The notes beneath the pieces were generated by a model that did no database searches, was not told the origin of the DNA, and worked only from the letters and a program-made list of their open reading frames with translations. Made by a program: the position numbers and the translations under genes. From Acidobacteriota bacterium (GTDB lineage: Bacteria > Acidobacteriota > Thermoanaerobaculia > Multivoradales > Multivoraceae): DNA of 64,000 nt. Positions within the stretch are counted from its first letter, which is position 1. Each line of letters starts with the position of its first letter. Positions 5,795 to 33,442 of this stretch are shown here, in pieces. The DNA is taken from positions 10,030 to 74,029 of the forward strand of contig QQVD01000007.1 of assembly GCA_003388555.1 (NCBI GenBank). Reading direction: 5' to 3'.

Positions 5795-5844
5795 CCCTCC
5801 CCCTTCAGGGGGAGGGTGGGGTGGGGGTGTCTCCTCGAGCGACC
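5795..5844 (+). repeat. Palindromic intergenic repeat (family A), copy 2
   Basis: CCCTCCCCCTTCAGGGGGAGGG..GTGGGGGTGTCTCCTCGAGCGA between convergent genes, followed by a pyrimidine-rich tract. Confidence 0.85.
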
Positions 5845-11246: not shown

Positions 11247-12737
11247 ATGCTATTGAGCCGCCTCGTTCTCGCCAAGGCGAATCCGGGGGCCGATCCGGAC
11301 CTCTACGTAGAGCACTACACCTACGACGTGTTCGGCAACCGAGTTCAGGTGCGCGAGCAGCACTGGCCCTTCGTCGGTTCGACCCCCTACGAGGACTACA
11401 CCCATCTCGAGTCGACGAGTGTTTCGACGAATCAGATGACCGTCCCGGGATACGGTTTCGACCTCTCCGGCAACATGACGACTCGCCCGGGCGCGGGCGC
11501 CTCTCAGATCACGATGGCGTGGGACGACCTCGACGCCCTGCGTGAGCTGAACAACGACAACCGGCAGACCCGCTACGTCTACTCGGCGGAGGCGGAGCGC
11601 GGCATCGTCATCCGTCCGGACGACGGCACCGGCCAGAACCCGATTACCCTCTATCTGCGCGATCTGAACGGCCGCATCGTCTCCGAGTTCGAAGCCCCGC
11701 CGGGTTGTGTGGGCGGCTGCCCACCGCAGGTCTACGACGACTGGATCGCGGGCGGTGCCGGCTGGCAACGCGACTACTTCTTCGCCAACGACGAGCACCT
11801 GGTCACCATCCAGCGCGATCCGGCGGATCCACAGAGCGAGGTGCGGCGGTCCTACTGGCGCGACACGTGGGACATCATCCGCATCGTCTCATTGAGCGAG
11901 GGACTGGAGAGGAACTACGAGGATCCGAAGGATCGTGACCTCTTCCTGCTGCCCTTCGGCAACCAGGGCATCAACCTCAACATCACCTCGTTCGACCCGC
12001 GCGATCACGCGCTGCGTTTCGCCAACCACGAGCGCGACACCAACGCGCCGGACGACGCCACCGACGACGCGGACTACATGCACGCCCGCTACTACATCCC
12101 GGAGCGGGGCCGGTTCATGAGCGTCGACCCGATCAACTCGGCGGATCCGATGGTGCCGCAGAGTTGGAACAAGTATGCGTATGCGCTGAACAATCCGGTA
12201 TCGTTCCATGATCCGGATGGGCGCTTCGCGCTCGGGATCCTGAAGAAGGGCGTCAAGCTCGCGATCAAGGGCGGCGACCTCGGTGCCACCTTCGGCGGAC
12301 TCGTCGATGACGTCAAGACGGTCTTCGACAAGGATGCCTCGGGTGGTGATCGGGTGCTCGCGGCCCTCTCGGCAGCGAGTGAGGTGTTCTCGCCGGTCAG
12401 TGCGCGGGATGCGAAGGCGATTGGGACGGCGCTTGGGGCGACGAAGCGACGGCCGACCTCTGCGCAAAGGGCAGCCGCTCTTGAGAGGGCAGAGGACTCG
12501 GAAGGAGTAGCTCGGTGCACGTACTGCGAGGTCGAGCTCGATCGAACCAGTGGAAGTTCCAACTCTGCCGAAGTGGACCACTATGTTCCGTGGGCTCGCG
12601 GTGGCGAGACGGTTGACTCGAATCTGAATGCCTCGTGCCGGACGTGCAACAGGTCGGCGGGAGCGAAGGAGAAGTCCAGTGAGCCTGGTGAGGGACTGTG
12701 GGTTCCGCCGAAAGACCGAAAAGACAAGGGAAATTGA
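11247..12737 (+). CDS. 5'-truncated RHS repeat protein with C-terminal HNH nuclease toxin
   Basis: YTYDVFGNR repeats; RHS core YMHARYY..GRFMSVDP..WNKYAYALNNPVSFHDPDG; tip CTYC..EVDHYVPWARGGET..NLNASCRTCN; real start doubtful. Confidence 0.85.
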   Translation: MLLSRLVLAKANPGADPDLYVEHYTYDVFGNRVQVREQHWPFVGSTPYEDYTHLESTSVSTNQMTVPGYGFDLSGNMTTRPGAGASQITMAWDDLDALRELNNDNRQTRYVYSAEAERGIVIRPDDGTGQNPITLYLRDLNGRIVSEFEAPPGCVGGCPPQVYDDWIAGGAGWQRDYFFANDEHLVTIQRDPADPQSEVRRSYWRDTWDIIRIVSLSEGLERNYEDPKDRDLFLLPFGNQGINLNITSFDPRDHALRFANHERDTNAPDDATDDADYMHARYYIPERGRFMSVDPINSADPMVPQSWNKYAYALNNPVSFHDPDGRFALGILKKGVKLAIKGGDLGATFGGLVDDVKTVFDKDASGGDRVLAALSAASEVFSPVSARDAKAIGTALGATKRRPTSAQRAAALERAEDSEGVARCTYCEVELDRTSGSSNSAEVDHYVPWARGGETVDSNLNASCRTCNRSAGAKEKSSEPGEGLWVPPKDRKDKGN

Positions 12738-13057
12738 CGCTCGTGGTTAGGGGGGCTGAGTCTCCATTGGTTCGTCGCATCCGAGAGGCGGTTGCGGCTG
12801 AGCATGCCGCAGGGACTAAACCTACCAAGCTGCGGGTAAGCGTGGCGAGCGAGGCTAGTTGGGAACCGAGCCCGCGAGGCGACAAGATACGAGTGAGGTG
12901 GCTATGCTGGAATCTGGGGACCGATGAGCGAGAGCTCACCGCGCCAGAGTTTGAGGTGATCTCTCCACAGATTACCGAAGCTATACTTCGGTCTGAGATG
13001 CCTGGCCACTTCCCTTCTCTGCTTGTGGAAGTCGACTCAAACATCGACGTCGACTGA
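12734..13057 (+). CDS. Putative immunity protein for the RHS-HNH toxin
   Basis: TTG start overlaps the toxin stop (TTGA); small, visibly lower-GC ORF; function inferred from position. Confidence 0.6.
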   Translation: MTLVVRGAESPLVRRIREAVAAEHAAGTKPTKLRVSVASEASWEPSPRGDKIRVRWLCWNLGTDERELTAPEFEVISPQITEAILRSEMPGHFPSLLVEVDSNIDVD

Positions 13058-13079
13058 AGTAGGGTAGGGAACTTAAGAA

Positions 13080-13131
13080 TTCTTAAGGGGTCAGGGACCT
13101 GGCAGTTCTTAAGGGGTCAGGGACCTGGCAG
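13080..13131 (+). repeat. Exact 26-bp tandem duplication containing REP-like motif B
   Basis: TTCTTAAGGGGTCAGGGACCTGGCAG x2, preceded by overlapping palindrome CTTAAGAATTCTTAAG. Confidence 0.9.
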
Positions 13132-13315
13132 GACCTCCTTGGAGTCGCCGCCCCGAGAGCCCGCGTTTCAGCTGAAGCGTCTGCTGGCCAGAGCCGACGC
13201 CGACGGCCAGATACGGCGATGCCGGCACGGCACCTTCGGCATCGTGCGCTGTGTTGGCCGCCCTCTGTGCTCGGTGGACGACGAACCTTGGCCGGCTCGA
13301 GAGCCGGCGCCGGCG

Positions 13316-14299
13316 TCAGCTCGGGGCTTCGAGGGCCCTGCGGACCTCGGCGTTGAGCCTGGGCAGGTGGCAGCCTTCTGGGAACTCTCCGATCGCTTCG
13401 CGGATGCCGGAGCGCAGGCGCTCGGAGGCTTGCATGTAGGAGCTCACCCAGGCGTGGTACTGCTCCCAGAACTCGAACCTGATCTGGCGGGTGGCGGCGT
13501 GGCATAGGGGCTTCGGGCTTCGCTTGGTCTTCTCGGGTCTGGGATGGGGATCGCGGCGCAGGATCCTCTTCTTCCAGTCGTCGGGGACCTGGGCGATGAG
13601 GTGTGCGTACTTCTCCTGGATGGACTCCAGCAGGCTCAGGATCGACTCTCGAATCTGCTTCCCGCAGAAGCCCTGCCAGCAGGGGATGGGAGAGAGCACG
13701 ATGTCGAGCGAGTGGGTGTAGTCGATCTTGCGCGGCTCTGCGTGGTGCACGCGACGGTTCTTCGAGCGCTGGTTTGCCTCCCAGGCTCGGCGAGCGCGAT
13801 AGAGCCCGGTTCGGTCGATCCACTTGCCGCCGCGGATCCGCATCTTCCCCTTCATCAGCTGCTTGACGCCGCTGACCCCGGGCCAGTCCTGCGGCCGGCG
13901 GACGAGTCCCTCTTTCACCCCATGGGCGAGCAGGTAGGCGAGGCGCTCGACCTGGGCCTTCTCCTCGTCGGTGACTGGGACTGCGCTGTAGCGGCCGCGG
14001 AAGATGCCGCCCTCCCAGGAGATCTCGGTCCCGATCTCCTTGGACAGGTTGCTGCCGATGTAGCGCTGGAAGGCTTCGAGCTGCTCGTGGTCCCGCGGAC
14101 ACAGATAGAGGTGCGCGTGGTTGCTCATCACGACGACGTCGTAGATGGTCATGCCGTAGAGGAGCTGGGCCCTCGCGATGACGCCTTTGATCAGGGCGTT
14201 GACACGGTCGCTCGGCCGCAGCAGGAAACGCGACTGGAAGCAGCGCATGGTGATGACCATGGGCTTGCCTGGCGGGACGAAGCGGGGCGGGCGGGGCAG
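13316..14299 (-). CDS. REP-associated tyrosine transposase-like (RAYT, HUH/Y1 family)
   Basis: (M)PRPPR..ITMRC, VVMSNHAHL (HUH), FRGRY, AYLLAHGVKEGLV..PQDWPGVS; probable CTG start at 14299 behind GGAGGT (alternative ATG at 14260). Confidence 0.85.
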   Translation of the reverse strand: MPRPPRFVPPGKPMVITMRCFQSRFLLRPSDRVNALIKGVIARAQLLYGMTIYDVVVMSNHAHLYLCPRDHEQLEAFQRYIGSNLSKEIGTEISWEGGIFRGRYSAVPVTDEEKAQVERLAYLLAHGVKEGLVRRPQDWPGVSGVKQLMKGKMRIRGGKWIDRTGLYRARRAWEANQRSKNRRVHHAEPRKIDYTHSLDIVLSPIPCWQGFCGKQIRESILSLLESIQEKYAHLIAQVPDDWKKRILRRDPHPRPEKTKRSPKPLCHAATRQIRFEFWEQYHAWVSSYMQASERLRSGIREAIGEFPEGCHLPRLNAEVRRALEAPS

Positions 14300-14461
14300 G
14301 GCGGACCTCCGGCGGTGCGGTCCGCGCGAGTGGGTGCGCGGACGCTGTATGCCCACCAGAACGATGCCGCGCGAGCCTGGCTGACGCCGCGTGGCGAATG
14401 TGACGCCGCTTGGCGAATGAGCGGGTCCCGGCGCCTCGCTCGACTTCGGCGCCGATCTCAC

Positions 14462-14612
14462 TCAGCGAGAACGGTCGACGTTGTCGTGCAGCCTCTCGAG
14501 AACCGCGACGTGATCAAGCGCAGCTTCCAAGACGTCGCCTGCGTAGCCGCTCGCGATCGGCACCCGATGCGACGATCGCCTCGATGTCGGTGTCGGCGAG
14601 ATCCTGGGAGCC
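14462..14612 (-). pseudogene. Possible C-terminal remnant of a nucleotidyltransferase-family gene
   Basis: Reads SQDLADTDIEAIVASGADRERLR and, in a shifted frame, LEAALDHVAVLERLHDNVDRSR*; QDLAD is typical of NTase C-termini. Confidence 0.3.
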
Positions 14613-14719
14613 CTAGGGGAGTGCCAGTCGTCTGAGAGAGCTCTCCGCCGGAGAGAGCGTCTCGTTCGCGGATGATCCTGAATGGCGAGCTCGGTCGGCT
14701 GATCGAGTGGCGCCGGCGC

Positions 14720-15210
14720 TCAGTCGTCGTCGGGCGACTCACCCACCAGATCGAGAGCGTCGACGACGAGAGATGGCGCCAGGTAGAGGCCCTGCTGGAG
14801 CAGAGCTTGGAGCACTGGCCGGGCCTCCGGGACGAGACCCGCCTTCCGTGCTCTCAGGATGACGCCGAGCGTTCCCGTGGTCGAGATCTCTAGGGACGCG
14901 GCGCATCGTCGTGCCTCGAGATCGTCGACGATCGCCTCGCAACCCGCCAACCGAGAGCGACGGCCAGGACCGACGACTCCCCGGGTCCGAGATCCCACCG
15001 TTCGATCTCGACCGGGACGACCGGCGCCTCCACCACGCGAAAGCGCACAGGTAGCGAACGGACTTCGGGGTTCTGCTCGGCACCGGCGAGCACTTCCTCT
15101 CGCACAGCTTCCGGCACGACGACTTCGTCGGCCAGCTTGGTCAGGAGATCGAGACGATCGATCCGGCTCAGGAGGATGAGCGGCGAGGCATTGACGACGA
15201 AGCGCCTCAC
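14720..15210 (-). pseudogene. DUF3368 PIN-domain protein, frameshifted
   Basis: N-half VVNASPLILLSRIDRLDLL..DLGPGESSVLA and C-half IVDDLEARRCA..TGTLGVILRARKAGL are in different frames, switching near 14950. Confidence 0.8.
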
Positions 15211-15461
15211 CCGTCGCGTGCCAACTCTTGCCGCAGCTCCTCGGTCGACGTCTGGAGCGCGGGGATCCGGCGCCGGAACAGCTCCTCGAGGAATGCCGCT
15301 CGAGTCACACCGCCGATCTCGGCAGCCTTGCCCTGGGAGATCTCGCCTTGGGAGTACCAGTGGATGGCAGCAGCGAGGCGCATCTCGCGCTGGAACTCCT
15401 CAGGGGAGCGACGGAGCGCCGAGAAGACGTCGGCTGGCAGATCGAAGGTCACTGTCGGCAT
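15207..15461 (-). CDS. UPF0175 family antitoxin
   Basis: REMRLAAAIHWYSQGEISQGKAAEIGGVTRAAFL; overlaps the DUF3368 start. Confidence 0.88.
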   Translation of the reverse strand: MPTVTFDLPADVFSALRRSPEEFQREMRLAAAIHWYSQGEISQGKAAEIGGVTRAAFLEELFRRRIPALQTSTEELRQELARDG

Positions 15462-15533
15462 GGCGGCATCGTAACCCGGAACATGTGTGGGTTCGCGCCT
15501 CCCTCTACACCAATCGCCTTTGCGGGAACTAGA

Positions 15534-15549
15534 GGGTCAGGGACCTGGC
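15534..15549 (+). repeat. REP-like motif B, copy 3
   Basis: GGGTCAGGGACCTGGC. Confidence 0.8.
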
Positions 15550-15607
15550 TCTTCGGGAATCGTGGTGGAGATCTCGTAGTCTGTCCTGGATGTAGCTAAG
15601 CCTTTGA

Positions 15608-15865
15608 CACCTTAGATCACCTTGGATCACTGACTTTCCCCTCGCCGAGAACGGTCAGCCCGAGCTGCTGGACTTCACCTGCACCGACGGGGTGCGTGGG
15701 CAGGGGCTGGACGGCACGTCGGGTCTGGCGGTCTCCTCTGACGGCCGGAAGGTCTACGCCACCGGCTTCCTCGATCACTCACAGGTCGGGTTCACGGTCT
15801 TGCCATTGTTCGCGGACGGCTTCGAGGGTGGCGATGCCGGAGCCTGGAGCGCGGTTGTCGACTGA
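15608..15865 (+). pseudogene. 3' fragment of a beta-propeller (lactonase-like) protein with C-terminal FADGFE motif
   Basis: No start codon; reads ..GLDGTSGLAVSSDGRKVYATG..PLFADGFEGGDAGAWSAVVD*. Confidence 0.7.
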
Positions 15866-15933
15866 GTGTGGGGGCCAGGGCGGAGCTCGCCGGTAACGTT
15901 GACTAAGCCGATGACCAAGTCGATGCTGTGCTC

Positions 15934-16164
15934 ATGACCGAGGTCTCCGTGCGCGAAGCGAAGACGCATCTCTCGCGCCTGCTCCGTCGGGTGGCGAGTG
16001 GCGAGGAGATCGTGATCTCCAGGTCCGGCACTCCCGTGGCGCGCCTGGTGCCGCTGACGCCGCCGGGTCGGCGAGTGCTCGGAAGGGACCGTGGGGCGTT
16101 CGTGGTGCCCGCCGACTTCGACGACTCGCTGCCCGAAGACGTGCTCGCCGCCTTCGAGGGATGA
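15934..16164 (+). CDS. Phd/YefM family antitoxin
   Basis: MTEVSVREAKTHLSRLLRRVASGEEIVISRSGTPVARLVP. Confidence 0.92.
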   Translation: MTEVSVREAKTHLSRLLRRVASGEEIVISRSGTPVARLVPLTPPGRRVLGRDRGAFVVPADFDDSLPEDVLAAFEG

Positions 16165-16553
16165 GAGTCCTCCTCGATACGCACGTCTGGCTGTGGATGC
16201 AGGTCGAGCCGGAGCGTTTCTCGAGAGACACGACGGAGGAGATCCTGCTCGACTCCACGGTGGATCTGCTTCTGTCCGCGGCCAGCTCCTGGGAGATCGC
16301 GATCCAGCACGCTCTCGGCAAGCTCGAGCTGCCGCTGGCTCCGACGGAGTACGTCCCGTCGCGAATGGCTTCGAGTGGTGTGCTCGGCCTGCCGATCGAG
16401 CATGCGCACGCGCTGCACGTCGCCTCTTTGCCGCCGCACCACACTGACCCCTTCGATCGGCTGCTCGTCGCTCAGGCTCAGCTCGAATCGCTGCCGATCC
16501 TCACCGCCGACGCGCAACTGGCGGCCTACGACGTGCAGCTCCTGCAGCCGTGA
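16161..16553 (+). CDS. VapC-like PIN domain toxin
   Basis: MRVLLDTHVWLW..SAASSWEIAI..HHTDPFDRLLVAQA..ILTAD; ATGA overlap with the antitoxin. Confidence 0.93.
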   Translation: MRVLLDTHVWLWMQVEPERFSRDTTEEILLDSTVDLLLSAASSWEIAIQHALGKLELPLAPTEYVPSRMASSGVLGLPIEHAHALHVASLPPHHTDPFDRLLVAQAQLESLPILTADAQLAAYDVQLLQP

Positions 16554-16674
16554 GACACGGGACGGTGGTGCTGGCGATCCGTTACGGACGTCACCTTCTG
16601 CGCGAGTCTGAGGAGAGCGGCCTGAGCCCGATCGCTCTCTCCTCAGCCCGAGGAGGACGCAGCGACCGGGAGCT

Positions 16675-16755
16675 CCTCACTCCATCGACGAGCTCGTCGG
16701 CAGCCAGAGGTCGCCCTGGCGGGTCATCGTGACCTCGCCCTTCACCGGCTCTCCC
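16675..16755 (-). repeat. Near-exact duplicate of the 3' end of CDS 18062-18928
   Basis: 81 bp matching 18060-18140 with one synonymous mismatch, including the stop codon; ends 12 bp before motif B. Confidence 0.9.
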
Positions 16756-16767
16756 CCATTCGGTGAA

Positions 16768-16787
16768 AAGGGTCAGGGACCTGGCAG
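16768..16787 (+). repeat. REP-like motif B, copy 4
   Basis: AAGGGTCAGGGACCTGGCAG. Confidence 0.82.
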
Positions 16788-16975
16788 CACCAACCAGGAA
16801 GACGATGTCCCCCGTGGTTCGGGGGCGATTGCGGAGGCGTTTGCCGCCAGCCCTCCGGCCAGCGGGTCCGGATGCCCGCATCGGCCAGCATACGCGACAC
16901 CTCCCGCACAGCTCGCTCGTAGCCCGGAACCGGCCGTAGCGCTCGCTCGAGGTCCGGTTTCCGCCCCGGGTTCAT
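16788..16975 (-). pseudogene. Degenerate 5' fragment of a nucleotidyltransferase gene
   Basis: Across frameshifts: YERAVREVSRMLADAGIR / LAGGLAANA / RNRPRTTGDIVFLVG = GGLA..PRxTxDxD motif; stops at motif B. Confidence 0.6.
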
Positions 16976-17197
16976 GCGTCGGCTCCTCTGGATCGCGATC
17001 TGGGCGCGCATCTCCACGGGTCTACTCCTCGCGCGCGCCGAACCGTCTTCACCGGTGCACATCTGGCCTCGCCGCTGGCGGGGTTTCCAGGGAACTCGAG
17101 GGTGAGTGGTCTGGAAGGACGGATGCGGATCTCTTCCATTCCTCGGGTACCCGCGGAGGAGGGCGCATAGGGAGTGCCAGGCGTTCGAGGAGACCGC

Positions 17198-17659
17198 CTA
17201 CTCGCCTCTCCTGTCCCGCACCAGCTTCAGGACCCTCGCGTCTTCCTGATGCCGTGGGTGATCGATGTGGCGCTTGATCTCGTAGAGCCCGTCGAGGTCG
17301 ATCCATGAGGCCTCGGCGTCGCCGTAGGGCGAGAGGATTCGCCGCTCCCAGGCTTCGTCGAACGTCGGACCTCCGGCGCTCGCGGGGTCACGAAGGATGT
17401 CGATCCGGTTTGGAGCCACTCCTAGCTGGAGGATCTCCTGATCGTCGTCCGGGTCGAGGAGGTGGGGACTGCCGAACTCGACGAGCGCCCGGTTCGTCCG
17501 CTCGACGTTGTCGGTCCTGGGATCCACCCAGAGATCCATGTCTTTGGTGAATCGGGGTTTGGCGTGAAAGATGAAGGCCAGTCCGCCGACGATCAGATAG
17601 CGGACCCGATGCTCTCCGAGGATCTCCAGCAAATCCTCGAAGTCCCGGATGGTCTCCAT
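17198..17659 (-). CDS. Nucleotidyltransferase (DUF6036-like, putative TA component)
   Basis: VRYLIVGGLAFIFHAKPRFTKDMDLW..RIDIL..LYEIK..RHQED. Confidence 0.85.
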   Translation of the reverse strand: METIRDFEDLLEILGEHRVRYLIVGGLAFIFHAKPRFTKDMDLWVDPRTDNVERTNRALVEFGSPHLLDPDDDQEILQLGVAPNRIDILRDPASAGGPTFDEAWERRILSPYGDAEASWIDLDGLYEIKRHIDHPRHQEDARVLKLVRDRRGE

Positions 17660-17661
17660 CC

Positions 17662-17916
17662 TCAGTCGCCCGAGAAGCGCTTCGCGCGAGCTACCTTCTC
17701 CAGGTCGCGGTGAAGCGCGACCAGGGCTGACAGACGCTCCTGCGGCGTTCGGCGCTGCCAGAATTCCAGATCCCAGAGCTCGGCCTCTTCGAAGCTCGTC
17801 GAGGAGTGCGTTTCGATGAGTTGCCGCCGCAGCGCGGCACGTGCTGCCCTCTCCTCCTCCGCCTCGTCGCTGACCCTGCTCTGAGAGCGGAATTCGTTCG
17901 GGGAAGTGCCTCTCAT
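17662..17916 (-). CDS. Small partner protein of the nucleotidyltransferase
   Basis: SFEEAELWDLEFWQRRTPQERL pattern, 2 bp upstream of the NTase; start uncertain. Confidence 0.65.
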   Translation of the reverse strand: MRGTSPNEFRSQSRVSDEAEEERAARAALRRQLIETHSSTSFEEAELWDLEFWQRRTPQERLSALVALHRDLEKVARAKRFSGD

Positions 17917-17932
17917 CGCCTTCGGATTCTAT

Positions 17933-18017
17933 CTCCTCGATACGCACCTCTGGCTGTGGATGCAGGGGGAGCCGGAAGTTACTCGAAGCACACGACCGAG
18001 AAGGTGCTCCTCGATTC
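17933..18017 (+). pseudogene. Degenerate 5' remnant of a vapC paralogue
   Basis: LLDTHLWLWMQGEPE/YSKHTTEKVLLDS aligns with LLDTHVWLWMQVEPERFSRDTTEEILLDS of 16161-16553. Confidence 0.8.
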
Positions 18018-18061
18018 GCCCTCTCTTGATTCGGAGGAGGACGCAGCAAACGGGAGATCCC

Positions 18062-18928
18062 TCACTCCATCGACGAGCTGGTCGGCAGCCAGAGGTCGCC
18101 CTGGCGGGTCATCGTGACCTCGCCCTTCACCGGCTCTCCCTCCATCGTGCCGACGATGCGCAGCACGGCTTCGTCGCCGGAGATCGATCCGCTGACGATC
18201 TCGACGTCCTGCGGCGTCATCAGCGCCATCAGCTCGAGCGACTCGGCGGCGTCGGGCTCGTCGAGCATGGCGGCCATCTCGGCCGGGACCAGGGCGCGGA
18301 TGCGCTCGAGGTCTCCGGAGTGGATGGCCTGCGTCCAGCGCAGGTAGGACTCGCCCGGCGCGCCGCCGCCCTCGGGCAACGGGTCGCCGATCGGCGCCGA
18401 GGGGTCGACCAGCGGAGCGTGGAAGGCGAGGTCGTAAAAGTACCGGTCGTCGAAGAACTCCTGCTCCTCGGGCAGGTGGATCCTGCCGATCCAGGCGTCG
18501 CCGTCGCGCGAGGTGATCTCGAGCGTCGGCGTGGTGCCGCCGGAGAGGCTGCCGCTGTCGACGCGGAGAGTGTTGGAGAGCACCTCGAGCGCCGGCTCGT
18601 CGCCGAACTCCGAGGTCCAGGTGATGCCGATGGTGAGCGACGGATCGTGGAACGGATCGTCGATCTCGCGCGGCGCCACGGGCTCGGCGGTGAGCACCAG
18701 GGTCCACGTGGGATCGTTCTCGTCGTAGAAGCCCTTCTCCTCGGCGTAGATGGCGGCGTACGCGATCGCCAGATCGTTGCCGTTGAAGGTCGCGGTGCCC
18801 TTGGCGGTCCCGGGCTCCTGGGCGAGCGCCGGCGCAGCCGCGACGAACAGCAGCAGGGGAACGAGCGCGAGGAGGACGAGGCGCGGGCAGCGGGCGAGAG
18901 GGGAGGAGAGGAATCGGGGTCTTGGCAC
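18062..18928 (-). CDS. Secreted acidic hypothetical protein
   Basis: Signal peptide ..LLALVPLLLFVAAAPALA; strong GC3 codon usage; AAGGAG RBS upstream. Confidence 0.8.
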   Translation of the reverse strand: MPRPRFLSSPLARCPRLVLLALVPLLLFVAAAPALAQEPGTAKGTATFNGNDLAIAYAAIYAEEKGFYDENDPTWTLVLTAEPVAPREIDDPFHDPSLTIGITWTSEFGDEPALEVLSNTLRVDSGSLSGGTTPTLEITSRDGDAWIGRIHLPEEQEFFDDRYFYDLAFHAPLVDPSAPIGDPLPEGGGAPGESYLRWTQAIHSGDLERIRALVPAEMAAMLDEPDAAESLELMALMTPQDVEIVSGSISGDEAVLRIVGTMEGEPVKGEVTMTRQGDLWLPTSSSME

Positions 18929-19242: not shown

Positions 19243-19288
19243 GTGACACCCCCACCCTGCCCTCCCCCTGCAGGGGGAGGGTTGGGGA
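19243..19288 (-). repeat. Palindromic intergenic repeat (family A), copy 3
   Basis: GACACCCCCACCCTGCCCTCCCCCTGCAGGGGGAGGG. Confidence 0.8.
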
Positions 19289-33309: not shown

Positions 33310-33442
33310 AAGGGACAAGGGACGAGGGACAAGGGACAAGGGACAAGGGACAGAGAGGGGTCAGGGGTCAGGGGTCAGGGGATAGGGGAAAGGGAAAAGG
33401 GAAAGGGAAAGGGAAAAGGGAAAAGGGACCCAGGGGAAAAGG
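33310..33442 (+). repeat. Purine-rich hepta/hexamer tandem tract
   Basis: (AGGGACA)n, (GGGGTCA)3, (GGGAAA)n. Confidence 0.85.

Follow-up and report, generated by a model that had tools for sequence, protein, structure and literature searches.

The 64-kb window analysed here (the whole stretch of DNA, from an Acidobacteriota draft genome) carries at 13108..14389, on the minus strand, a repeated unit of 1.3 kb in which a gene for a Y1-HUH tyrosine transposase-like protein is combined with a short, oriented end repeat, hereafter repeat M, whose 16-nucleotide (nt) core is GGGTCAGGGACCTGGC. This gene-plus-repeat unit is a multi-copy element resembling an insertion sequence (IS), and its protein is of the TIRYT/TIRtron kind, a relative of the RAYTs that has already been described. 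The unit lies within a variable island of low GC content (11.3-18.1 kb), which is made up of an orphan RHS tip, three pairs of toxin-antitoxin (TA) type and several gene scraps. A first-pass annotation had read most of this region as an array of blocks delimited by the hairpins of repetitive extragenic palindromes (REP), accumulated by a RAYT that would mobilise short chromosomal segments. We consider it probable, with moderate confidence, that the region represents a hypervariable toxin island, fed by horizontal transfer, which hosts an IS-like Y1 element of the TIRtron type whose end repeat has been seeded locally and in one orientation.

The open reading frame (ORF) of the Y1-HUH protein (TIRYT/RAYT-like) extends over 13316..14461 on the minus strand, its conserved part begins near 14300, and the protein comprises 314 amino acids (aa). 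When the window protein is aligned with 19 homologues from related genomes, both histidines of the NHxH motif (H48 and H50) and the tyrosine Y109 are invariant in 20/20 sequences, and so are one Trp and one Glu. The tyrosine motif takes the form Y-x4-G-x-KE, with YLLAHG in the window protein and YLLxxGVKE as the family consensus. An AlphaFold (AF2) model built on the same alignment reached a pLDDT of 93, and the top match retrieved for it from the PDB by Foldseek was 4ER8, the REP-associated transposase of E. coli (TnpA-REP), with a template modelling (TM) score of 0.65 on the target and a root-mean-square deviation (rmsd) of 2.5 Å over 135 columns. The transposases of ISDra2, IS608 and IS200 came next; the N-terminal 135 residues are those matched, and the C-terminal ~180 residues have no Foldseek match in the PDB. 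Judged by its sequence and by its modelled fold, the protein is clearly a Y1-HUH enzyme, despite family scores that stay below curated cut-offs. In this sense, the RAYT label of the first-pass annotation held as regards the enzyme class (invariant NHxH and Tyr, 4ER8 fold), and it failed as regards the REP hairpin partner and the RAYT cut-off. A word-index database search returned 778 homologues at E <=1e-10; many of them carry PF01797 in precomputed annotation, and many are situated on contigs of 1.0-1.5 kb, as happens with repeated elements. Those that have been named are called "REP element-mobilizing transposase RayT" or "transposase", and come from Thermoanaerobaculia or Acidobacteriota.

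In the 1.3-kb unit, repeat M is separated from the Y1 gene by a spacer of 190 bp, in which GCTTCAGCTGAAACGC forms a near-palindrome; the left end, on the other side of the gene, starts with GTCAGCC at 14379-14385, some 120 bp upstream of the point where conserved coding begins. Two tandem copies on contig C5 are 85-87% identical to the window and 93% identical to each other; two more, truncated where contigs C16 and C68 begin, are 90-92% identical to the window, and one on contig C21 is 71% identical. Overall, the Y1 gene has 11 matches in the genome, five of them close copies, and there are at least five diverged copies of the unit. The repeat ends the unit in 3/3 complete copies, about 190 bp past the stop codon and on the opposite strand. 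In the window this right end is clear and takes the form of a tandem pair of repeat M (13088..13129, plus strand), with the homology common to the C5 copies starting at 13108; at the left end only GGCGTCAGCCAGG is recognised, which agrees with the reversed repeat at 8/13 positions (a reading by eye). The UPF0175/DUF3368 pair of the island is placed outside the unit, and the proposal that TA genes are cargo of the conserved unit was rejected, because the common homology stops at 14389, before the TA pair.

Of 41 related genomes, 29 contain homologues of the Y1 protein, one of them as many as 36 matches; the best homologue outside the genome of the window is 49% identical. Most of the 20 homologous loci printed have a short, lineage-specific direct repeat about 200-300 bp past the stop codon, with a core of CTGACCCC or CTGGCACC on the sense strand, and about half of the 20 also have inverted copies of the repeat 125-330 bp upstream of the gene. 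A scripted search recovered such a repeat pair in 15 of the 34 full-length sequences among 39 further matches (genomes G005 and G007). Crowding of Y1 genes has been observed elsewhere as well. Genome G005 contains nests of at least nine Y1 genes, of two types, over 35 kb and on one strand (C2 4.456-4.494 Mb and C1 2.119-2.139 Mb); the protein ends printed for these nests are nearly identical, and an ISL3-like transposase is found among them. In the genome of the window, a second Y1 paralogue, with 32-34% identity to the window protein, occurs three times over C21 99934-109711, at intervals of about 4.4 kb and on one strand. A repeat of ~65-70 nt comes after each copy, as a tandem in 2/3, and a HigA-like ORF is present just upstream of the first copy.

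Repeat M occurs four times in the window, at 13088, 13114, 15534 and 16770, in 4/4 cases on the plus strand, as the first-pass annotation had reported; no further match was found in the window at two or fewer mismatches, 0.09 matches being expected from shuffled sequences and 0/100 shuffles reaching four. The copies at 13088 and 13114 are arranged in tandem with a period of 26 bp. The 16-mer is the core of an extended unit, a terminal repeat of 26-30 bp that can be approximated as GGGAAC-TTAAG-GGGTCAGGGACCTGGCAG. The draft genome (6.8 Mb, 74 contigs, 70.6% GC) holds seven exact copies of the 16-mer, and a profile search recovers 16 related copies: the four of the window, nine on C5 (110-135 kb) and three on contig C32 (71-75 kb, near the contig end). 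Beyond these, nothing was found in the genome at E <1; since the profile was itself made from the same 16 copies, the informative part of this search is the absence of others. A single orientation is kept at each locus (window 4/4, C5 9/9, C32 3/3), GC skew places the repeat on the G-rich strand in 3/3 loci, and toxin genes (TA pairs and orphan RHS tips) abound in each of them. The motif GGGGTCAG is present in 3/4 window copies, the tandem pair containing it fully and the other two, M3 and M4, beginning GGGTCAG, and also in the copies at C5 132988, C5 134468 and C32 71234, and the five most degenerate C5 copies constitute a subtype of their own, ending in CCTGGA. Outside this genome the motif was absent from 40/40 relatives searched. 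A scan of a metagenome collection with a 21-mer returned three contigs, from one assembly and all from this species; two of them are 99.85-99.96% identical to the genome, and the third is a novel contig of 4 kb (L031), which shows ~94% identity over its RHS part.

The motif had been described as a hairpin, a description of which the motif itself stands and the hairpin does not. The stem amounts to 4 bp (GGTC/GACC), and single-strand DNA folds of the repeat copies are no better than those of shuffles (z from -1.3 to +0.6). A true REP hairpin was rejected on these grounds. The real REP-like palindrome of this genome is a different sequence. This palindrome (core CCCTCCCCCTGCAGGGGGAGGG) is located in the window at 19245-19285, and also at ~1834-1869 and ~5795-5831, is unrelated to repeat M, and gives 93 BLAST rows over many contigs of the genome. 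A reading of ...TGGCAG... as part of a sigma-54 promoter was dropped by eye, given that the GG-to-GC spacing is off by one and that the downstream element is missing in most copies. Fold analysis disclosed no attC-like structure in repeat M, and we presume that it bears no resemblance to a dif/Xer site either. The heptamer GGGGTCA, which equals the GGGGWSA core of the element end repeat, forms arrays of 3 to 17 perfect units at 33357-33377 of the window and at 39 other loci. Several of these arrays share a conserved right flank of ~70 nt, and their strand is not tied to GC skew (13/36).

The island has a GC content of 59-68% over 11.5-18 kb, against 70.6% for the genome. Its left part is occupied by an orphan C-terminal RHS fragment of 482 aa (11289..12737, plus strand), consisting of RHS core (TIGR03696 Rhs_assc_core, 55.2 bits) and an HNH-like tip (weak HNH-type matches). 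Only these 482 aa are RHS-like, no full-length RHS gene was found upstream of 11289, and the best paralogue, on contig C36, is 38% identical. Directly after the tip comes an ORF of 119 aa (12698..13057, plus strand) with no Pfam or NCBIfam match, which by its position only may be the RHS immunity gene. Past the Y1 element, the first TA-type pair is encoded on the minus strand by a DUF3368/PIN-like toxin gene (14720..15210) and an intact UPF0175 antitoxin gene (15207..15461; PF03683, 89.5 bits). The toxin gene, with 48.6 bits to DUF3368 on 14720-14998 and a weak PIN match on 14890-15210, is considered frameshifted because it is split over these two overlapping frames; one contig of run X5 (seawater) has an extra A behind 14946 that would join the frames, weak evidence at a depth of 3.9. 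The solo repeat M3 (15534..15549, plus strand) follows, its 3' end replaced by an IS end, so that ...CCTGGC is continued by TCTTCGGG and not by ...CCTGGCAG. Fused to M3 is a 46-bp stub of an ISL3-family inverted repeat (15547..15592, plus strand), 95.6% identical to C23 66126-66170, a segment that abuts an intact ISL3 transposase gene (DDE_Tnp_ISL3, 231 bits). The intact ISL3 itself extends over C23 64884-66170, encodes a transposase of 414 aa and adjoins an RHS-like fragment.

Behind the stub, the plus strand carries the 3' fragment of a gene for a secreted-type protein (15608..15865), open only from ~15608 and ending in the tail ...DGFEGGD..W. Earlier taken for a piece of a beta-propeller gene, it has no Pfam match and has just this C-terminal tail in common with several proteins of the genome. 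The tail (window 15800-15865) is a recurrent one, ...(L/F)xDGFE(S/G)GDxxxWS..., borne by large secreted-type proteins of the genome, and resembles a sorting signal. Since the ISL3 stub separates the fragment from M3, the gene was cut in an IS-associated event and not at the repeat. Then come an intact phd/yefM antitoxin gene (15928-16164, plus strand; PF02604 PhdYeFM, 42.3 bits) and an intact vapC gene for a PIN toxin (16161-16553, plus strand; PF01850, 42.2 bits), and after them a duplicate of the 3' end of the 18062-18928 gene (16632..16759, minus strand). This duplicate is 91% identical over 130 nt to 18016-18145, agrees in 25/25 residues by tblastn, and ends about 10 bp before the solo repeat M4 (16770..16785, plus strand), an exact 16-mer. 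Gene fragments had been said to end within 0-60 bp of the motif, which is correct at 16770 and fails at 15534, where the ISL3 stub intervenes.

The stretch beyond M4 (16786..17197) is uncharacterised; an "NTase 5' fragment" had been placed in it (16787-17062), and it has no Pfam match at E <0.1 and no credible paralogue, tblastx against the genome giving low-complexity noise only. The neighbouring ORFs are a possible nucleotidyltransferase-type (NTase) pair on the minus strand (17198..17916), in which the 153-aa ORF (17198-17659) matches DUF6036 at 17.9 bits (cut-off 23.6) and AbiEii at 13.9 bits, both below cut-off, and its 84-aa upstream partner (17662-17916) has no match in Pfam or NCBIfam; neither of the NTase assignments could be sustained. 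A 5' remnant of vapC (17933..18017, plus strand), 83% identical over 86 nt to 16170-16255, precedes the right border of the island, which is formed by an intact gene of 288 aa (18062..18928, minus strand) with a signal-peptide-like N-terminus, a GC content at third codon positions (GC3) of 0.94 and no family match. As regards the other block genes first reported, the UPF0175 gene, the DUF3368 gene (in frameshifted form), phd/vapC, the 3' fragment of the 18062-18928 gene and the vapC remnant were all recovered. The right-hand copy of the duplicated vapC-to-gene segment equals the left-hand one (16170-16759) minus an internal 376 bp, and the two differ at 2/~86 positions in the gene part and at 15/86 in the vapC part. 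This uneven divergence would be better explained by two diverged alleles having been joined than by a recent duplication in place, and it argues that the blocks were not simply captured from this chromosome. Mobilisation from this chromosome, as initially proposed, is thus poorly matched, the fragment of the 18062-18928 gene being the only one with a parent here. Among the ORFs of 12.7-18.9 kb scanned with Pfam there is no match to Phage_integrase; no helicase was found in the locus, where Y1_Tnp is the sole HUH domain type.

On C5, a MazE/PIN pair (116957-117612) has repeat copies on both sides, at 116858 and 117635. Most other C5 copies are found 16-75 bp past the stop codons of intact, ordinary genes, which encode a protein of 1896 aa, a TPR-containing Ser/Thr kinase and a DAO-Rieske oxidoreductase; an intact beta-helix gene is likewise flanked, and the copy at 110241 has a DDE_3 transposase fragment beside it. 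Between the two tandem Y1 units there is a 165-nt 3' fragment of a PIN gene (C5 133010-133190), 84% identical to an intact gene, and a 95-bp remnant of a third Y1 unit follows (134468-134578). On C32, a repeat copy precedes each of two RHS fragments by 20-25 bp; the fragments are 93% identical to each other, and both have lost their 5' side up to nearly the same codon. One end of the metagenome contig L031 (4090 nt, not in the draft genome) has a repeat copy, into which an ORF for a transposase of rve/Mu-C type reads; the opposite end has an ISL3 repeat. The contig also contains an RHS fragment with 94% identity to C32, and as a whole it points to more repeat-linked RHS blocks in the population. 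The genome-wide scan for the 16-mer, suggested together with the original claim, thus bore out a confinement to three toxin-rich loci; the link to gene breakpoints turned out to be partial, many copies being located by intact genes.

As to TA genes, the genome has 20 PIN matches, three of which are in or beside the repeat loci, a territory of ~0.5% of the genome that was defined post hoc. In genome G007, 0/43 PIN matches are within 10 kb of the 13 Y1 places listed, and in G005 about 1/18 PIN genes is within ~10 kb of a Y1 array. The neighbourhoods of homologues were also surveyed in relatives, on the upstream side only and with two duplicate loci dropped: the 1.5 kb upstream of ~42 homologues contain 101 ORFs, which match 48 Pfam families, each in a single member, and no recurrent TA family appears among the families listed (the first 25 of the 48). 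The survey of homologous RAYTs proposed at the outset has therefore given no sign of such a recurrence, and a family-wide link between Y1 and TA genes was rejected on this survey and on the PIN distances in G005 and G007.

Under the explanation that we regard as probable, the Y1 enzyme would bind and cut single-stranded DNA (ssDNA) at the repeat, and strand transfer would seed tandem and solo copies near its own gene, as E. coli TnpA-REP does in vitro with bacterial interspersed mosaic elements (BIMEs). The outcome would be a small, local family of repeats that share one orientation. Both these copies and other IS (the ISL3 stub, and DDE-type transposase fragments elsewhere) may then serve as junctions where segments are duplicated or deleted locally and foreign alleles are imported, so that cut genes are left beside some copies; TA and RHS genes would be neighbours or preferred landing sites in a hypervariable island rather than demonstrated cargo. 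Several observations weigh against this explanation. The window protein scores 19.2 bits with Pfam Y1_Tnp (PF01797), the cut-off being 23, and 43.4 bits with NCBIfam REP_Tyr_transpos, the cut-off being 80 (profile positions 14-144 of 146). In 3/5 close Y1 copies, the gene next to the left end on its 5' side is that of a PIN-type toxin, encoded on the same strand 25-330 bp away: the DUF3368 gene in the window (330 bp), a PIN fragment at the second C5 copy (25 bp) and a VapB/PIN pair on C16 (~190 bp). The three toxins show no pairwise similarity (BLASTP E >1), and being mutually unrelated they are not relics of one larger duplicated unit; "target preference", as this adjacency would be called under the explanation above, is no more than a putative label. 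Besides, by our own count, with tandem copies taken as one, a truncated gene or element directly adjoins 5 or 6 of 13 repeat sites, a share above the one expected if the repeat were intergenic and passive. In the window this concerns the fragment at 16759 and, via the ISL3 stub, M3; on C5, the PIN fragment at 133010-133190 and the element remnant at 134468-134578; and on C32, the 5'-cut RHS fragments at 71234 and 74508. The remaining sites look like ordinary intergenic repeats. Finally, most solo copies are clean units of 16-30 bp with no leftover of the element interior, and thus are not simply decayed element ends.

An artefact of assembly, by which the array would be a chimera of collapsed repeats in a metagenome bin, is highly improbable. 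The genome is a draft of 74 contigs, and two Y1 units stand at contig starts, meaning that repeats did break the assembly. Yet zero-difference Logan contigs of separate public runs, which belong to one biofilter study and may include the source sample, bridge every repeat site, both duplicated segments and the whole third block (run X1, record 1 for 12600-13258, record 6 for 14524-16119 and record 7 for 16098-18072; run X2, record 15 for 16726-18110), and mis-assembly, named beforehand as an outcome that would overturn the claim, is rejected. Public runs also bear on a second alternative, closest to the claim first made, in which the Y1 enzyme cuts and joins repeats of the same orientation, and a segment plus one repeat constitutes an excisable and insertable cassette, in the manner of an HUH-driven integron. 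We deem such a cassette system unlikely, and hold it equally doubtful that segments between same-strand copies are excised as ssDNA and re-inserted beside another copy, a process by which the element would assemble arrays of toxin modules (TA pairs, orphan RHS tips) beside its own gene. With sites on the same strand, such a scheme makes mechanistic sense for a Y1 enzyme, and it is favoured by the uniform orientation (4/4, 9/9 and 3/3), by the order Y1 gene, TA1, repeat, TA2 block, repeat, TA3 block, by the C5 MazE/PIN pair with a repeat on both sides, by the two C32 RHS fragments that start 20-25 bp past a repeat, and by the clean junctions at solo copies. The divergence of 2/~86 versus 15/86 would likewise fit the import of a foreign allele ending at a repeat copy. 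Known Y1 elements use the lagging-strand template, which is matched by the placement of the repeat on the G-rich strand in 3/3 loci. However, four public runs exhibit no joint, deletion or circle at any repeat copy, so that the circular or excised forms of blocks initially envisaged were not encountered (contigs only, in which rare forms are invisible; the parts of the window without cover in runs X4 and X5 are uninformative, and one joint of 13131 to 13238 in X4, with side 20, looks like a paralogue). Most C5 blocks are ordinary full-length genes of 0.8-9.4 kb, one of the breakpoints is an ISL3 scar, and no TA family recurs upstream of the ~42 homologues among the families listed. Outside the genome, the best homologue is 49% identical, the repeat is absent from 40/40 relatives, and the metagenome scan leads to its own species only; in G007, 6 of the 13 homologues fetched had a recognisable repeat pair, and 6/6 had just that pair, with no local solo copies.

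The repeat could instead be passive, that is, a local variant of the G-rich GGGGTCA satellites that follow stop codons, spread by tandem duplication and unequal crossing-over with no contribution of the Y1 protein, the element merely ending in one copy or having landed beside it. This, too, seems improbable to us. The genome has 40 arrays of at least three perfect GGGGTCA units, many of them right after a stop codon. Repeat M has GGGGTCAGGG as its core, its copy at C5 130192 likewise adjoins a stop codon (TAG), and the degenerate C5 copies have their own subtype ending in CCTGGA. Diverged tandem duplicates are common, as illustrated by the Y1 units of C5 (93%), the RHS fragments (93%), the PIN fragment (84%) and the vapC remnant (83%). 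Nonetheless, Y1 homologues elsewhere have lineage-specific repeats of their own, at the same distance and with the common core CTGRCMCC, which argues that the protein and its end co-evolve, and the extended repeat with its GGAAC...CCTGGCAG flanks is found at none of the heptamer arrays.

RAYT-like Y1 enzymes are widespread, and their effects on genomes are largely obscure; TIRtrons have so far only been catalogued. Here, one Y1 lineage in a Thermoanaerobaculia-like genome behaves like an IS, with an end repeat restricted to three toxin-rich loci and, in several cases, placed exactly at gene breakpoints. If the enzyme does recombine its repeats, this would be a new way to build arrays of TA and polymorphic-toxin genes; if it does not, the locus would be an ordinary hypervariable island scarred by several mobile elements. 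A Y1 gene with end repeats of the GGGGWSAS type is a kind already described. In the literature searched, no published account was found of such repeats bounding TA/RHS modules or homing to TA operons, and as far as that search reaches the association of the repeat with TA/RHS genes is unreported, an association of one genome here. A bold reading would be that elements of this lineage target PIN-type TA operons, homing to their 3' ends. In any case, three Y1 copies by three unrelated PIN operons are a concrete lead for studies of target sites.

Integrons and the pdif/Xer modules of Acinetobacter plasmids are built of short modules, often TA pairs, that share one site of fixed orientation and are situated next to a recombinase gene. 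The window resembles them in its arrays of short modules split by one oriented site near an enzyme gene, and differs from integrons in that there is no tyrosine recombinase match (12.7-18.9 kb ORFs) and no attC-like site. From IS91/ISCR and Helitrons it is distinguished by a domain of Y1_Tnp type only, instead of a Rep-type HUH domain, and by a locus without a helicase. With the IS200/IS605 group (IS608, ISDra2) the element shares the Y1-HUH fold, ends of the same orientation on one strand, as required for ssDNA "peel and paste", and the placement of the repeat on the G-rich strand (3/3 loci). On the other hand, it lacks subterminal hairpins, its protein has 314 aa versus about 150 aa, and its copies are 85-92% identical versus near-identical. 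The tyrosine motif is also different, being Y---Q in IS200 and Y---NP in class 2 (RAYT-type) enzymes (Table 1 of Quentin et al., 2018, PMC6006769), and Y-x4-G-x-KE in the window.

The REPtrons (RAYT/TnpA-REP with REP/BIME; Nunvar 2010; Bertels and Rainey 2011; Ton-Hoang 2012) supply the closest solved fold (4ER8) and, like the unit of the window, have a gene bordered by cognate repeats, in variable number at the 3' side. In E. coli, hicAB is found in place of the REPtron locus in some strains, an alternation with a TA pair that recalls the toxin genes of the window, and strand transfer by TnpA-REP builds tandem BIMEs in vitro, comparable to the tandem repeats observed here (PMC3333891). The window element differs from them in having no GTAG-tagged palindrome and a stem of 4 bp, in its 16 local repeat copies versus hundreds of dispersed ones, in at least five close gene copies versus one, in missing the curated RAYT cut-off (43.4 vs 80 bits), and in not presenting the Y---NP motif. 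TIRtrons have been defined by Di Nocera et al. (2013, PMC3733652) as the units formed by Y1 genes with non-REP terminal repeats, the genes being termed TIRYTs, and most TIRYTs were later assigned to subclass 2.1 of TnpAY1, with a median protein length of 238 aa (Quentin et al., 2018, PMC6006769). In comparison with them, the protein of the window is long (~314 aa, with the unmatched C-terminal part of ~180 aa), its tyrosine motif is not Y---NP, its left end keeps only a degenerate inverted copy (8/13), and the element is multi-copy and IS-like, with solo repeats confined to toxin-rich loci. Besides these differences, the likeness extends to the short repeats, distinct from REP hairpins, that flank a Y1-HUH gene and to the end sequence itself, since the GGGGTCAG of the window fits the consensus GGGGWSAS given for many TIRtron ends. 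It further includes the dimers, clusters and small repeat families described for TIRtrons, to which the 13088/13114 tandem and the C5 and C32 clusters correspond, and the group of Acidobacteria singled out in the same account (Di Nocera et al., 2013, PMC3733652), which agrees with homologues here labelled Thermoanaerobaculia or Acidobacteriota.

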